Shown: positions 24,001-30,000 of the stretch, piece after piece
How the letters are laid out: each line of letters opens with the position of its first letter
How positions within the stretch are numbered: the first letter of the stretch is position 1
From: a candidate division WOR-3 bacterium
GTDB taxonomy: Bacteria; Hydrothermota; Tepidihabitantia; SM23-42; JAOAFX01
Direction of reading: 5' to 3'
NCBI GenBank assembly: GCA_039802265.1
Contig: JBDRWI010000001.1
Coordinates: 1-64,000 of the forward strand
Length of the DNA stretch: 64,000 nucleotides
Position numbers: made by a program

Positions 24001-27000
24001 TGCAAGGCGTCTCTTACTAATTCTGCAATCTGAACTCCGGCACGCTGTTGTCCCTCTTCGGTCTGGGCACCGATATGGGGAGTAAGGATGACCTGTTCCA
24101 GACTGAAGAGCTTATGCTCCTTTGCCGGTTCCACCTCATAGACATCCAGACAGGCAACCTTTACCTTTCCCGAGACAATTGCATCATAAAGGGCATCTTC
24201 ATCAATTACTCCACCACGAGCACAATTCACAATCACAACACCCGTCTTCATCTTCTCAAAGGCCTGCTTATTTAAAATATGAGTGGTCTCTTTTGTCTTG
24301 GGAATATGTAATGAGATGAAATCTGATTCTTTTAGGAGTGTATCAAAGTCAACAAGTTTTGCATAATCAGATGATTTAACCAGCGGGTCATAGGCAATTA
24401 CCTCCATTCCCAGTGCCTTTGCCCTTTTAGCAAGTTCAGTTCCAATTCTACCAATGCCAATAATTCCCAATGTCTTACCAAAAAGTTCAAAGCCATGGAA
24501 TTTCTTCTTCTCCCATTTGCCCGCTTTGGTGGAAATGGTCGCCTGGGGTATCATTCTTGCCGCGGAAAGCATCATTCCCAGGGCAAGTTCAGCTACGGAT
24601 ATTGATGTTGCCGCTGGGGTATTGACAACCTTTATTCCCCGTGACTTTGCCGCCTCCGCATCAACATTATCCAGACCAACCCCCGCCCTTCCAATCACCT
24701 TTAAATTCTTGCCTGCTTCAATTACCTCTTTTGTAACCTTTGTTGCACTACGGACAATAATGGCATCAAAATCAGGAATTGTTTTAATCAACTCATCCGG
24801 TGCCATCCCGGTCTTCTCTACCACCTCAAAACCGCTCTTTTTTAAGATTTCAATCCCCTCTCTGGCAATTGGGTCAGAAATTAAGACCTTCATAGCTTGC
24901 CTCCTTTATCTCTGTTCTTCAATTCATCTGACTGCCGTCTATGACCTTTTCACAGATTATAATCAATCCTGCGGAAAAATCAAGGGTGTTACAATATCCG
25001 TTCACAATCAAATCACCTTCTTGTCAATTTCAAAAATATCAAAAAGGGTGTCAAAAAATTTTACTTTTGAAAGATGCGTAAATCTGCTTTAAGATTGCAT
25101 TTTGATGGACTGTGTGAATAATTTTTAGATTAACTTCTCCAAAGACGCAATCTAAAAGTGCCTAATAGTCACAATCAAGTAATTTTCTGCAACAATCTCC
25201 TTGCTTCCTCAGAATCTGGCATTATCTTTAAAACCCTTTGCAGTATCCTTTTTGCATCGTTTTTATCTCCATGCTCAAGGCAAATTTTTGCAAAATTTAT
25301 TGCCTCGGATTCAAAATGGTTTAAAATCATAAATCGGTAGTTTAGTGACCACTCATCAAAATTCTTCCTGAAGGGTTGACCACGAAATAACCGAAACGCC
25401 CGCCAGAAGTGTTCACGGGCAATTTCCCACTTCTCGCCGTTTAAGAATACCTTTGCACCCGCAAGCAATTGTTTAAATTCATCAATATCAGTTGCAAAAT
25501 GAATCCCCTGATTTATTATATAAGAATCGGCGCCAACGCGTGCCCAGTTAACCAAGTAGGTTGGGATTTTCAACGACTTCTTTATTCTGACTAAGAGATG
25601 TGATAGATTTTGTTTTGGTGTCTCACTTTTAGGCCAGAAATTTTGAAAAATGTCTACCAATGGCACCTTCTTGCCGGGACTATCGGCCTTTATTGCAAAA
25701 TGAATCAAAAATGCTGTATCCTTGGGCGATAATTTCACCTTTAAATAATCATTTTTTCTATAAACCACTAAATCCCCAAGTATCCTCAGATTGTAGACCA
25801 AAATATTACGATTAAATACGGGCAGAGTAAACATTGACCGGGGTATTTTAGGATTTCTCCCGATTTCCATTTCACGGATGACCAAGTGAGAAAAAAAGGG
25901 CACGAGCAATAGAAAATCTGAGACCAAATATTTACGATGAGCGAGGGCAAGTGCTTTTTGATAATTACTACTTCTCAGTAGAGCAGCGATCTTTATCAAC
26001 GGCATGTAATTCCCCTTGATTATCTGATTCAATTTTTCTTTTGATTGTTTTGAAACAATTAATGTAATAATCTTTCCCCAGTGTCTTGACTTCTTTGATA
26101 GATGGTAGATGCCTTTTAGCACACCCATACCCTCCTGTATCATGCCCAGTGAACTATAGGCACTTGCCATCACTAAATAAGCAGCTGATGCGATGTTAAT
26201 CAATTCTTCTTTCTTTGCTGCTTTGAGGGATTCCAATGACAACGATATCGCCGCCTCCGGTTTGCCATTTATTAAAGAATAGACACCTTCAAAGAAAAGA
26301 CGCATTGCCTCAGCACCCCAAACCTGAAATTCCGTTCTTTTGAAGATTGACATATCTTTAAGATAATCCCCTTTATGCCAACGAATAATAGTCAAAAAAT
26401 TCATATATTTTGCCTTATTCTCTTCCGATGCCTGACTCAATGCCTGACAAAACAATCTTTCTGCGTGACGGTAATCCTGAACCCAGGTATAAAGTGTAGC
26501 AAGCATCGCAGGAAACTCACTCGGCAGAAGCCTTCGGTATCTTATAATTCGCCCGCACTCTCTAATAATTTTCCATGCACCATTGTAATCCAGGGCGATC
26601 ACCCGGGCAATACCCTCTCCAATTAGAATTACATATTTAAAAAGAGAAAGTATATTGGAAAAATAATTACCGCACGGCTTAAGAACTTTTTTGATTTTTT
26701 TGATTTTATCGTTGAACTCTTTCCATTTACCCGCATATGATAATGCCCCACCCAGCATAATTCCAGCTTTTAATGATGAAAAGTATAAATTATCTTCTAT
26801 ACATTCGCTGTAGAGAGATTCCATTTTATCGAGAAATTCAGACAGGGGAATCTTCTGGAATAACTGGAGATACTTCTCAATGCGTCTTTTTAGGTTCAGG
26901 TATTCATCGGGAATTTTGATTAACAGTTCATTAGCCGGAAGCGCGGGGATGGAATTTAATAAATCGGCTGCCGCCGTTATATTGCCGGAATCAAAAAGCC

Positions 27001-30000
27001 TGATTGCCTGATGATACTTCATTTTCGCCTCTTTATTCCAAGTTGTACACTGGGTAAGATTGGGATCGAGTGAATTCTTATCAAACCCGGCATAACCATA
27101 TCTCTTCCAGATATTCCAGATTCCTTTTAGAGAAATCTTTATTCCTGAGCTTCTTAAAATTTTTTGTGCCCGTCTTACGGTTAACGAAGGATTGTTTTCT
27201 TTCAAAAATGCAATCTTCTCTTCTGTTGCGCGCTCAATCCTATTCCAAGGTCTATTGTAGTTACTCAGAAGACCAAACTCTCCATGGATTCGGTATATCT
27301 TAAGCCACTTATAAACCGTGCGCGGATGAACATTCCATTTCACGGCGGTCTTGGCAATAGACATTCCATTGTTTAAATGATCCTGAACTGCTGAAAGACG
27401 GAAAGAAAATGGTCGGTCGCCCATTTGTGGAAACATTGTATATAAAAATTTATCTGTGTCAAGTAACCTTCCTGGTGAAATCGCATTTAACGAAAAATAA
27501 TATACCATAATTTATCCGGCAGCAAAAATGTGACATCAGGCTAAATATTTTTCTATAAATGAACCACCGAATTCCCATAATGCCAATAATCGTCCTATTC
27601 TTAGATACCTTGGGGTTTTCGCCACCAATCTGGCCAAACTGGAAGTATGATCGACAATTGACTGGAAGATGCCCATACATCGGACCGGAGCAGCCGGAAA
27701 TTGATTGGGTCTTTGATACCCAGGATACATTTCGGTTCACTTCGGCCTCGGTAGTAATCAGTGGGGATAGTACAATATACTTCTGCAGTCCTGATAGTTT
27801 CCTCTTTGCGGTCAAACCCAATGGTGTCTTGAAGTGGCGATTCAAAACCCGTGGGCGCCCTTATTTTCCAGCAATTGATGAGTCAGGTAGAATTTACTGC
27901 AGTGTTGCCGGCGATAGTATCTATCTCTTGACACTGGATGATTCCATTACTTACGCGAAGTTTGTCTGGTCCTGGAGCATGCCTAATAATAATAATCTTG
28001 TCGCCCTTCCCCCAATTAATATTGGTGTAGATAAAACCACCTATATGTCCGCGGATTCTATGCGTGCCATTGATAGTGCCGGAAATATAAAATGGACATG
28101 TCACCGTGGGATGACCTCGGCTTATCCACCCGCCCTATCTCATGATGGTTCAAAATTATTTTATGAATGGTGTTATGACCAGTGGACAAACACGCTTGCC
28201 AGTCGTGATACGAGCGGCGCTTTAAACTGGTATCGGGTTATCGGCCCAGCTCCGATGTCCTTAGCCTGGGGGAGTCCGGCAATTGGTAGAGATAGTGCTA
28301 TCTATTTTTCAACTGCTGATGGTAGATTACTTGGATTGTGGCCAAACAATACTGATAAATGGGCACCCCAAAATAACCTGGGTGCCTTGAACTTTATGAC
28401 GGTTTCTCTTGGAAGTAATGATACCCTGTGGCTTATGAACTATGGGAAAAGGCCAACTTATCGTAAATTCTCTCCGGACAACGGTATAATTACCTTTATT
28501 GACTCAGTCACCACCCTGCCCAGTGTGTACAACTTTTTTAACTCTTATATAATTGATAGTCTGGGACAGGCATATATTGTTCTAAGGGATTCGCAAACCA
28601 CTTCAAGTATCTTATACGCATTCAACGCTGATGGCACTGTCAAGTGGTCCATACCTCTTACTGGTTCATCATTTACACCAAGGAGTTTTCCGGCAATCGG
28701 ACCAAACCACAAAATATATGTGTGTGCAGGCACTAAATTATTTGCCATCAGAGATGGAAGCAATATTGCTGAGTCTAAAAAGGAAAGAAAAAAACCCTTC
28801 TTTTTTGATGTCTATCCCAATCCCTTCACAAGGCATTGCGTGATCGAATTCCAAATCCCGAGCCGTCACTCAGATTGGCGGGTCAAGTCCCGGTCCGAAG
28901 TTTCTTTAATAATTTATGATATCTCTGGTAGGGTTGTGAAATCGTTTAATTCAACAATAAGCACCAAGAATCAAATATCAAAAATCCATTGGTTTGGTAA
29001 TGACGATTCAGGTCGCAAACTCCCACCCGGTGCATATTTCTTGGTTATTAAGACATTTGAATTTGTTGTAGAAAAAAAGGTCGTTAAGGCAAATTAGTAT
29101 TTACTTATTTTCAAGTTTTCTTCATTTTTGCCGGAATATATTATTGGATCTTAATTACCGCTTGACAAATACTACAGTTCAAACTTGGAATTTTTATTCA
29201 TTAGTGAAAATGGAACATTACCCTTTATATATCTCTTGAACTTTCTCAGTGCCTTTGCCCGGTGGCTGATACGATTCTTTATTTTAAAGCCGAGCTCGGC
29301 AAAGGTTTTATTAAAACCTTTAGGAATGAATATCGGGTCGTAACCAAATCCATCCTTTCCTTTTGGTTCATATGCAATTCTTCCAATACACTCACCGGTA
29401 AAGACCTCATACCTTCCTGGCGCATAATAATATACGAAAACTACCTTGAATCTTGCCTGTCTGTTCTTTTTATTACCCAACTCGTTCAGAATTCTTTCAA
29501 TCCGTTCCTGGTCGGTCTTACCATACCTTGAAGAATAAATTCCCGGTGCTCCATTTAGTTTATCAATGAATAATCCAGAATCTTCAGCCAGACAGGGTTT
29601 CTTGATAATCTTATAAAAGAATTGTGCCTTTAAAAGACTATTTTCCAAAAGTGTCCTTCCAGTTTCGGCAATTCTGAGCTTAAAGGAATCGCTCAGTGTG
29701 AGACATTTAAAATCCTTACCCAGAATAGCTTTTATCTCTTCAATTTTGTGTTTGTTTCGGGTGGCAAGGAGAACAGTAAAGGGGGGCTTGCGCTGACAAG
29801 CTCCCCCTTTATTTTTTGGTTGCATAATAGAATTTATGGACTTATCATCGTCTCTACCACAAATGCCCCACGATAACCCAGACTCAATGCCCGATTCTTC
29901 AAGGTTTCTGCCTCTTCTTTGGTTAAACAATCACCAACCCGAACTTTATAATATGGAGGAACATACTCTATATATACCTTACCCCCAAAAGCGGAACGGG

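Follow-up and report, generated by a model that had tools for sequence, protein, structure and literature searches.

Introduction

What does a gene do that begins like a transposase, ends like a transcriptional activator and stands head-to-head with a gene for a predicted secreted protein? The question is raised by one gene pair in the window, which here means the whole 64,000-nt stretch of DNA analysed, from a candidate division WOR-3 bacterium. The initial annotation described four paralogues as dedicated regulators of T9SS cargo that are often misnamed transposases. All four were found (g00022 in the window; g00635, C15:2498-4495; g00670, C16:10883-13144; g01818, C83:2697-4907), and relatives are indeed named 'transposase' in several sources. 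The favoured answer, which has a reasonable probability, is that these are fused one-gene activators that would set a SARP module on the partner promoter and be carried on exchangeable cassettes. An uncultured bacterial group appears to have remade the DNA-binding head of a transposase into a family of gene switches, each paired with a secreted-protein gene in a unit that seems to pass between genomes and within them, and many 'transposase' annotations would be corrected. Literature searches, covering freely readable main texts, found the family nowhere described, and no bacterial example of a transposase head joined to TPR and a SARP module emerged from the searches made.

Locus and gene models

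The head-to-head open reading frames were confirmed at 25175-27508 (minus strand) and 27559-29097 (plus strand). The regulator gene therefore exists as annotated, but its start is probably Met29 (27424) rather than 27508, because residues 1-27 have a pLDDT below 50 and a conserved promoter lies immediately above; the profile of relatives (n=122) also starts at 27424. The features of the locus are as follows.

25175..27424, minus strand: regulator coding sequence, 749 aa if translated from Met29, the probable start within the 777-aa ORF
27080..27424, minus strand: tandem (paired-like) HTH of IS481-type transposases, without the catalytic core (NF033577 matches)
25844..27061, minus strand: TPR solenoid, the most variable region, candidate sensor or spacer (model, fold matches)
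25490..25804, minus strand: winged helix of OmpR type within the SARP module (AfsR 8k60/8hvr and EmbR as fold matches)
25175..25489, minus strand: BTAD-coding 3' end, homogenised within genomes, putative recombination arm
27435..27462, minus strand: sigma70-type promoter of the regulator, TTGACA-16 nt-TACAAT, nearly leaderless (sequence; TTGAC conservation)
27533..27551, plus strand: degenerate partner promoter, ACATC-8 nt-TATTTT (family spacing)
27559..29097, plus strand: partner gene with signal-like N-terminus, beta-propeller and T9SS type A tail (TIGR04183, weak propeller match)
28810..29088, plus strand: tail-coding segment, possible second recombination arm (TIGR04183 match; tail-pair comparison)

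Rfam gave no match in 24000-30000. Two sequencing runs, probably of DNA, confirm the locus in close strains.

Regulator architecture

In the regulator, whose ORF is modelled at a pLDDT of 92.5, an IS481-type tandem HTH is followed by a TPR solenoid and then by a wHTH-BTAD end like that of AfsR. The catalytic domain is missing, as had been claimed: the IS481 profile match (50 bits, cut-off 224) ends at position 133 of 284, ahead of that domain, and the domain and profile search found no rve catalytic domain. The Pfam basis given earlier stands in part, since HTH_28 and HTH_Tnp_1, along with HTH_23, exceed their cut-offs whereas HTH_32, most TPR models and BTAD (E 0.023) fall below theirs. NF033577 is matched by 87/87 family heads. 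Outside the family, the head matches just one gene of this genome, for an IS481-like transposase (E 3e-10), and short head relatives sought by word index amounted to three family fragments and nothing else. Compared with IS481 transposases, the family shares both HTHs, over the first ~133 profile positions, but has neither the rve domain nor terminal repeats, and its head is fused to TPR-SARP.

The SARP module is C-terminal, residues 570-777 of 777 matching AfsR at Z 16.6 (rmsd 2.9, 198 aligned), which bears out the AfsR-like C-terminus proposed initially; EmbR is matched at Z 15.4. The TPR solenoid resembles, in fold and size, those of the RRNPP sensors (Rap, NprR, AimR) and is also matched by MalT-III, all at Z 14-16, scores that unrelated TPR proteins equal; generic TPR proteins likewise dominate the whole-model Foldseek search. 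No AAA match to suggest an NTPase was found in the regulator, the middle of the model being all-helical. MalT-like AAA-TPR-wHTH-BTAD regulators have the identical TPR-wHTH-BTAD order but an NTPase where the family has its transposase head, and those of 1030-1250 aa in relatives give weak C-terminal matches. The ESM Atlas neighbours are TPR-BTAD clusters, with an HTH_28-type head in none of the rows shown.

Fold matches of the head are weak (Pax5/Pax6, TnsB, SETMAR and Tc3; head-only VIA scores all below Z 8), and the top Foldseek rows are eukaryotic transposase-derived factors at E of about 0.008-0.016. Eukaryotes are known to have gained transcription factors by capturing the DNA-binding heads of DDE transposases, a process covered by reviews (PMC10027918; 10.1101/2020.05.07.082677). 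Like Pax, SETMAR and CENP-B, the family has a bipartite HTH taken from a DDE transposase; it differs in being bacterial, IS481-derived and equipped with a bacterial activation module, a parallel in which homology is limited to the HTH pair.

Distribution and partner genes

The family is present in 26 of 30 genomes of WOR-3 relatives and in 16 of 151 phylum-wide; the paralogues are 28-33% identical to the window copy. Each of the four copies in this genome is divergent from a tail-bearing gene, as first reported. More widely, the upstream neighbour is divergent in 70/70 copies and in 21/21 held-out copies, counts that include kin and transferred loci and so are not independent, and it is mostly tail-bearing, with the exception of held-out copy L105, which faces a gene lacking the tail. 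As a base rate, a divergent tail gene lies upstream of 28/1527 non-tail genes (1.8%), or 28/332 of the divergent ones.

The window partner matches TIGR04183, the type A C-terminal sorting domain, over residues 418-510 (33.4 bits, cut-off 23), and its propeller match is weak (E 1.8e-6). A profile built for this analysis yields 193 tail ORFs in the genome in place of the 150 cargo genes counted earlier. The T9SS assignment appears only partly right: the tail is of T9SS type, and SprA and 10 PorV-family genes exceed their cut-offs, but GldM (0/30 genomes), GldN and GldL (0/1 each) were not found, in searches that also gave no match in any control genome. Secretion may thus use a route that has SprA and PorV yet lacks recognisable GldL/M/N.

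Promoter anatomy

Beyond what had been annotated, the intergenic region has a characteristic promoter anatomy. Regulator promoters carry TTGAC in the same place in 71/76 copies. Among partner promoters this -35 element occurs in 0/59 and, in the held-out set, 0/17, compared with 145/458 and 26/83 control promoters (about 32%). The family form of the partner promoter is ACAYA, 8 nt, TATAAT. ACAYA stands 8 nt above the -10 in 28/59 and 9/17 held-out promoters, compared with 1/458 and 1/83 controls, the latter itself regulator-linked; about half of the partner promoters thus lack the strict box. The spacer is 8 nt in 30/32, and the spacing classes of 81-85, 92-95 and about 101 nt follow one-helical-turn steps. 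In the window copy, an ordinary GTGACA-18-TATAAA promoter (27530-27559) could also be read.

This geometry is that of a SARP target. SARP promoters are described in PMC11301090 as having a poor -35, with the activator's site lying 8 nt above the -10, as at the AfsR B site. The partner promoters are accordingly likely to be SARP-like and activator-dependent, with ACAYA as the presumed binding site. The family shares the wHTH-BTAD fold of AfsR and EmbR but differs in having the module at the C-terminus rather than the N-terminus expected of a SARP, in its lack of an ATPase and of the 11-nt direct repeat (a second box lies 11 nt upstream in 0/32, at -12 in 2 and at -10 in 0), its additional N-terminal DNA-binding head, its phylum (WOR-3) and its targets, which are secreted-protein genes. 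Because the partner promoters lack a -35 and place ACAYA at the SARP distance, activation of the partner by the regulator is judged quite probable.

A palindrome further upstream has an information content of 9.1, compared with 5.7-6.1 in shuffles, and 35 genome matches above 14 bits compared with 9 in shuffled sequence. It is weak in held-out families (4/17) and absent at the window copy, and a genome-wide composite scan for palindrome plus box gave no match. Its occurrence at regulator-free promoters too (e.g. C75:4613 and C64:9563; three copies lie on C35) would suit an unlikely alternative in which the regulator acts as a repressor, perhaps of its own gene only, from the intergenic region that both genes share, while a separate global factor on the palindrome activates the partner. 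Divergent HTH regulators are frequently repressors. Against that reading, only promoters that are regulator-linked or relics have the box at 8 nt from the -10, and PMC11301090 describes the SARP module as one for activation. Of all 11-residue windows, the wHTH recognition helix gives the top-ranking covariation with the box (nominal p 0.004), which is not significant by permutation (p 0.46).

3'-end homogenisation and probable cassette exchange

Homogenisation within genomes affects the final ~300 nt of the regulator gene, giving mosaic genes, whereas its HTH/TPR core moves together with the partner gene. Judged by TPR, 31/65 nearest neighbours have a homologous partner (background, 6% of pairs) and 5/65 come from the same genome; judged by BTAD, 26/65 come from the same genome. 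Genome labels change 38 times on the BTAD tree (made with FastTree) and 56 times on the TPR tree, with 57 in shuffles (minimum 53). The missing catalytic domain, the co-travelling core and the SARP-like partner promoter together support the reading of these genes as putative dedicated regulators rather than transposases.

The same pattern might be sought in old, vertically kept regulator-partner paralogues whose 3' similarity reflects selection for the host RNA polymerase plus codon bias. Since AfsR BTAD touches the polymerase (PMC11301090), some host-specific constraint on BTAD is to be expected; moreover, some sites are orthologous (L055/L057, L070/L073), and the 98% match between G000 and G009 spans an entire 9-kb contig and could be mis-binning. 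This explanation is nevertheless improbable. BTAD third positions alone cluster by genome (42 label changes) but equal-length TPR windows do not (54-55), and in one regulator pair identity reaches 97-99% across 200 nt close to the 3' end but is 34-51% for most of the gene. Copies of one unit also have different flanks, and one site has three alleles.

Units occupy differing sites, stand in tandem or survive as relics, including orphan 3' fragments, and G010 and G008 provide a filled and an empty version of one site. Together with the homogenised 3' end and the travelling core, this suggests cassette exchange by homologous recombination, which is considered fairly probable. Recombination at the tail-coding end is possible but less clear than at the regulator 3' end: among 182 tails, 12 pairs are at least 80% identical over non-homologous passengers. 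DprA was not found in this 89%-complete genome. At the window site, other genes lie above serA in 10/10 relatives of another genus, and a same-genus genome has no regulator in the 479 nt searched up to its contig end, so that no clean empty site emerged.

The ends of 9 local IS481-like elements were compared with the box and palindrome, and nothing matched beyond the terminal TGT. On a non-autonomous transposon reading, the box (TGTGT toward the regulator) would be a former terminal TGT, and the gene would make up the left half of an element of IS481-like type, moved in trans by an IS481 or IS91 enzyme. The box faces the gene ~100-110 nt above its start, TGT left ends are similarly placed in some local IS481-like elements, two copies adjoin IS481-like genes, and the C83 unit adjoins an IS91-like gene. 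Even so, this account is very improbable: neither a terminal repeat nor a target duplication could be recognised convincingly on either side of the window unit, 70 downstream sequences inspected by eye have no common right end, the partner lies beyond the supposed end yet co-travels, and the junctions between the filled and empty sites of G010 and G008 lie within the BTAD arm, not at the box.

Polymorphic cassette systems include Rhs/CDI orphans and tRNA-integrated islands. The family shares their variable core, conserved arms, tandem units and orphan 3' fragments, but has no integrase, and its presumed arm is the regulator's own activation domain.

Proposed mechanism

In the favoured model, a MalT-like regulator would have exchanged its ATPase for the DNA-binding head of an IS481-type transposase, a direction of fusion that we infer; both candidate parents are found in the lineage. 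A consensus sigma70 promoter would drive regulator production, and the C-terminal SARP module on ACAYA, in place of the absent -35, would recruit RNA polymerase like AfsR. The second anchor, normally given by SARP direct repeats, would probably come from the transposase head, whose site is most likely the palindrome ~50 nt further up; this assignment of domains to sites is an even bet. The TPR solenoid probably gates activation by a cytoplasmic ligand, perhaps a peptide, within this model, a step that is itself somewhat doubtful; no conserved RRNPP-type peptide gene was seen downstream among ORFs of at least 70 aa. Regulator core, promoter and partner passenger would form one cassette. Homologous recombination at the conserved 3' end of the regulator gene would swap this cassette, add it in tandem or remove it; the end of the partner gene that encodes the tail may serve likewise, though less clearly.

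More tentatively, the family may be to bacteria what Pax-style transposase capture is to eukaryotes and at the same time work as a set of plug-in cassettes, one protein bridging two promoter sites about 40 nt apart by means of DNA-binding domains unrelated to each other. Each unit would then bring along a secreted protein, either an enzyme or a binding protein, together with a sensor and a DNA anchor of its own; it would enter a genome by recombination at a resident regulator's activation domain, and the incoming switch would gain a BTAD already fitted to the host RNA polymerase. In this way the tail-bearing secreted proteins of the lineage, about 190 in number, may be regulated and traded singly. 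The promoter code is testable, with a 5-nt box, fixed spacings and natural helix and box variants, and its sigma70-type promoters allow it to be tried in E. coli.

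Regulator units and their partners

The best explanation of the locus, and a fairly likely one, makes the regulator a dedicated activator with two anchors, encoded on a cassette exchanged by recombination, the cassette being a regulator, a shared promoter region and a divergent partner gene; we infer activation, the site assignment, the ligand and the exchange route. The two window genes lie head to head:

25175-27508, minus strand, regulator ORF (g00022), 777 aa
27559-29097, plus strand, partner ORF, 512 aa

The unit sits above serA (window 23994-24893 and upstream). Ten relatives of another genus have a different gene order above serA, with an hslV-like gene next in nine (naming by eye).

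Searches with tblastn and phmmer return exactly three further copies in this genome (contigs C15, C16 and C83; 28-33% identity), matching the four paralogues of the initial annotation, and a gene with a T9SS-type tail stands opposite the regulator in all four. The base rate is 28 divergent upstream tail genes among the 1527 non-tail genes of this genome that have an upstream neighbor. An iterated tail profile finds 193 tail ORFs in this genome, which supersedes an earlier cargo count of 150.

The 70 loci examined are those with flanking DNA, a subset of the copies. They hold 76 regulator heads, six without upstream sequence, and a divergent neighbor is present in 70/70 of the remainder. This neighbor carries a tail in 54 cases, is cut by the locus end in 5 and has no tail by profile in 11 (five BNR or sortilin propellers, one weak tail and five without a Pfam match). 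Partner types are diverse and include YCF48/BNR propellers, subtilases, a C25 peptidase, FG-GAP and Kelch proteins, and others. A held-out set of 20 loci from other families, read by eye, has a divergent gene opposite 21 of 21 copies: 15 have a tail, three are truncated, one is split, one has no detected tail and one is an unrelated gene (locus L105).

The designation of the partners as T9SS cargo is borne out in part: the tails are present, the host has SprA (C29:13833-17339 of this genome, G000) and PorV-family genes (ten above the cut-off, 14 in another count), and GldL, GldM and GldN were not found in a search run without a positive control. SprA, many PorV-family genes and about 190 tail genes, with GldL/M/N not found, point to a possible reduced T9SS-like route.

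Regulator architecture

Several named relatives, which belong to candidate division WOR-3, are labeled transposases, as had been suspected. The IS481 transposase profile aligns with residues 37-167 over its positions 2-133 of 284, ending before the catalytic domain, which the regulator lacks. The protein is neither a transposase nor a member of the STAND class. All 87 aligned heads match the IS481 transposase family, and the single ORF of this genome outside the regulator family that a head-only profile finds is an rve-containing IS481-like transposase. In its fold the head consists of two units of three helices each, and its best but weak structural matches are Pax5/Pax6, TnsB, SETMAR and Tc3. 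The model of the whole regulator has a pLDDT of 92.5, with disorder at residues 1-27.

The proposed SARP-type end is borne out by the structure model, in which AfsR (Z 16.6, rmsd 2.9, 198 aligned) and also EmbR are structural matches for residues 570-777. Between the head and this end lies a TPR solenoid; its matches to Rap, NprR, AimR and MalT III score level with those to unrelated TPR proteins. The mode of action would be similar to that of SARPs, but two features set the family apart from SARP members: the position of the module and the lack of direct repeats. Relatives encode AAA-TPR-BTAD regulators of 1030-1250 aa (six scanned: four with an AAA match, one with GGDEF), and the family may have originated by fusion, the ATPase being swapped for a transposase head. 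MalT-like AAA-TPR-BTAD regulators also occur in tandem, followed by a TonB-dependent receptor, in closed genomes without the regulator family (L128:825-10303 and L129:1219-10697).

Promoters

In 71/76 copies the regulator promoter has TTGAC, with a -10 at a distance of about 17 nt and the start codon a few bases later, an arrangement that puts the window regulator start probably at 27424. Partner promoters were compared in 59 copies (69 with enough sequence minus 10 near-duplicates), with the -10 picked by the TATAAT matrix alone; this -10 is mostly 81-85 nt from the regulator -35. TTG(A/C)C is found at the -35 position in 0/59, versus 145/458 other and 26/83 tail-gene promoters of this genome, and ACAYA lies just above the -10 in 28/59, versus 1/458 and 1/83, the control promoters being noisier because of a wider search window. 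The lone positive tail-gene control is the C83 partner itself. The spacer from this box to the -10 is 8 nt in 30/32, and none of the partner promoters checked repeats the box 11 nt further up. Among held-out copies the box is present in 9/17 and a -35 in 0/17; further spacings seen there are 92-95 and about 101 nt. AfsR is reported to occupy a site 8 nt above the -10, where it takes the place of sigma region 4 at a poor -35 and touches three parts of the polymerase: the beta flap, sigma R4 and alphaCTD (PMC11301090).

Among copies whose wHTH helix is altered, the box is often altered too; in 49 dereplicated copies the helix is the top covarying window, but this is not significant by permutation (p 0.46). 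A 24-nt palindrome centered 50-52 nt above the -10 occurs in about half of copies (IC 9.1 vs 5.7-6.1 shuffled), is weak in held-out families (4/17) and is also present at promoters without a regulator, where it is possibly the site of a global factor. Regulator-less intergenic examples in this genome are C35:5831-6044, C64:9563-9685, C75:4613 and C33:5877, with three occurrences within 200 nt on C35. The window partner promoter is atypical (ACATC, 8 nt, TATTTT), lacks the palindrome and may be overlapped by an ordinary promoter.

Probable exchange of units

Copies within a genome are more alike at the regulator 3' end than copies from different genomes, where mean nucleotide identity over the last 190 nt is 0.68 within genomes versus 0.56 between (middle: 0.45 versus 0.43). 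Further comparisons are as follows.

Similarity of regulator copies by region
BTAD four-fold sites, same genome / same family group / other: 0.46/0.40/0.35
TPR four-fold sites, same order: 0.32/0.29/0.29
Genome-label changes on trees of 70 copies: BTAD 38, BTAD third positions only 42, TPR windows 54-56, shuffles 57
Nearest neighbor by TPR: common partner family 31/65, same genome 5/65
Nearest neighbor by BTAD: common partner family 15/65, same genome 26/65

Individual cases come from related genomes. G007 and G012 have 5.2 kb in common at 83%. The common stretch covers exactly the partner and the regulator, the flanks differ, and 4.5 kb of this unit recur in G009. Over 2 kb that take in the partner 5' part, the promoter and the regulator start, identity between G007 and G009 is 99-100%, dropping to 82-86% in the partner 3' part. 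G008 and G010 have one site in common, 94% identical over 4.4 kb, and G013 carries a third allele at this site. An extra 7.7-kb unit in G010 is bracketed there by 87-89% repeats that comprise the regulator 3' end and the DNA downstream of it, an arrangement resting on a 329-nt contig overlap. Tandem units are co-oriented in every multi-copy locus viewed, and orphan regulator 3' fragments lie behind several genes. In this genome, the C16 unit and a contig from another genus share 97.7% identity along 9 kb, which may be mis-binning. At C9:26002, a paralogue of the window partner retains the regulator promoter, start context and box (C9:25860-26002, L004), and the regulator gene itself is gone. 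ComEC is present in the genome, DprA was not found there, and no integrase forms part of the unit.

Tail-coding DNA is up to 95% identical across unrelated passengers (C94, C106, C36 and C54 of this genome), which is apparently tail conversion among secreted-protein genes.

Distribution of the family

In the order, 26/30 genomes encode members that score E 1e-45 or better. Searches of these 30 give no match in G019 and G022 and weak C-terminal matches only in G025 (MalT-like) and G027; the assembly is a single contig in three of the four. Phylum-wide, at least 16/151 genomes match with seven candidates scored per genome, in a few families, and 172 clusters at 50% identity reach E 1e-30 or better. 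No account of the family appears in the open literature searched, mostly at the level of titles and abstract openings.

Elements near the units

Small gene pairs that resemble toxin-antitoxin systems, HEPN/nucleotidyltransferase-like by eye, are found directly behind regulator 3' ends at:

L044:10780-11741
L037:12568-13428
L039:4962-5823
L058:1092-1696

An orphan regulator 3' fragment follows such a pair twice. Low-complexity tandem repeats of 8-9 nt and REP-like hairpins begin at the regulator stop codon or just past it in many copies (for example L053, L074, L009, L003, L060 and L071). IS91-like transposases adjoin the C83 unit (L003:7023-8243) and a regulator-less homologue of the window partner (L134:5019-6254). 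ORFs of 70-90 aa lie behind regulator ends at L002:9169-9387, L076:3678-3890 and L084:4045-4314, the first two similar by eye to MshEN c-di-GMP-binding domains.
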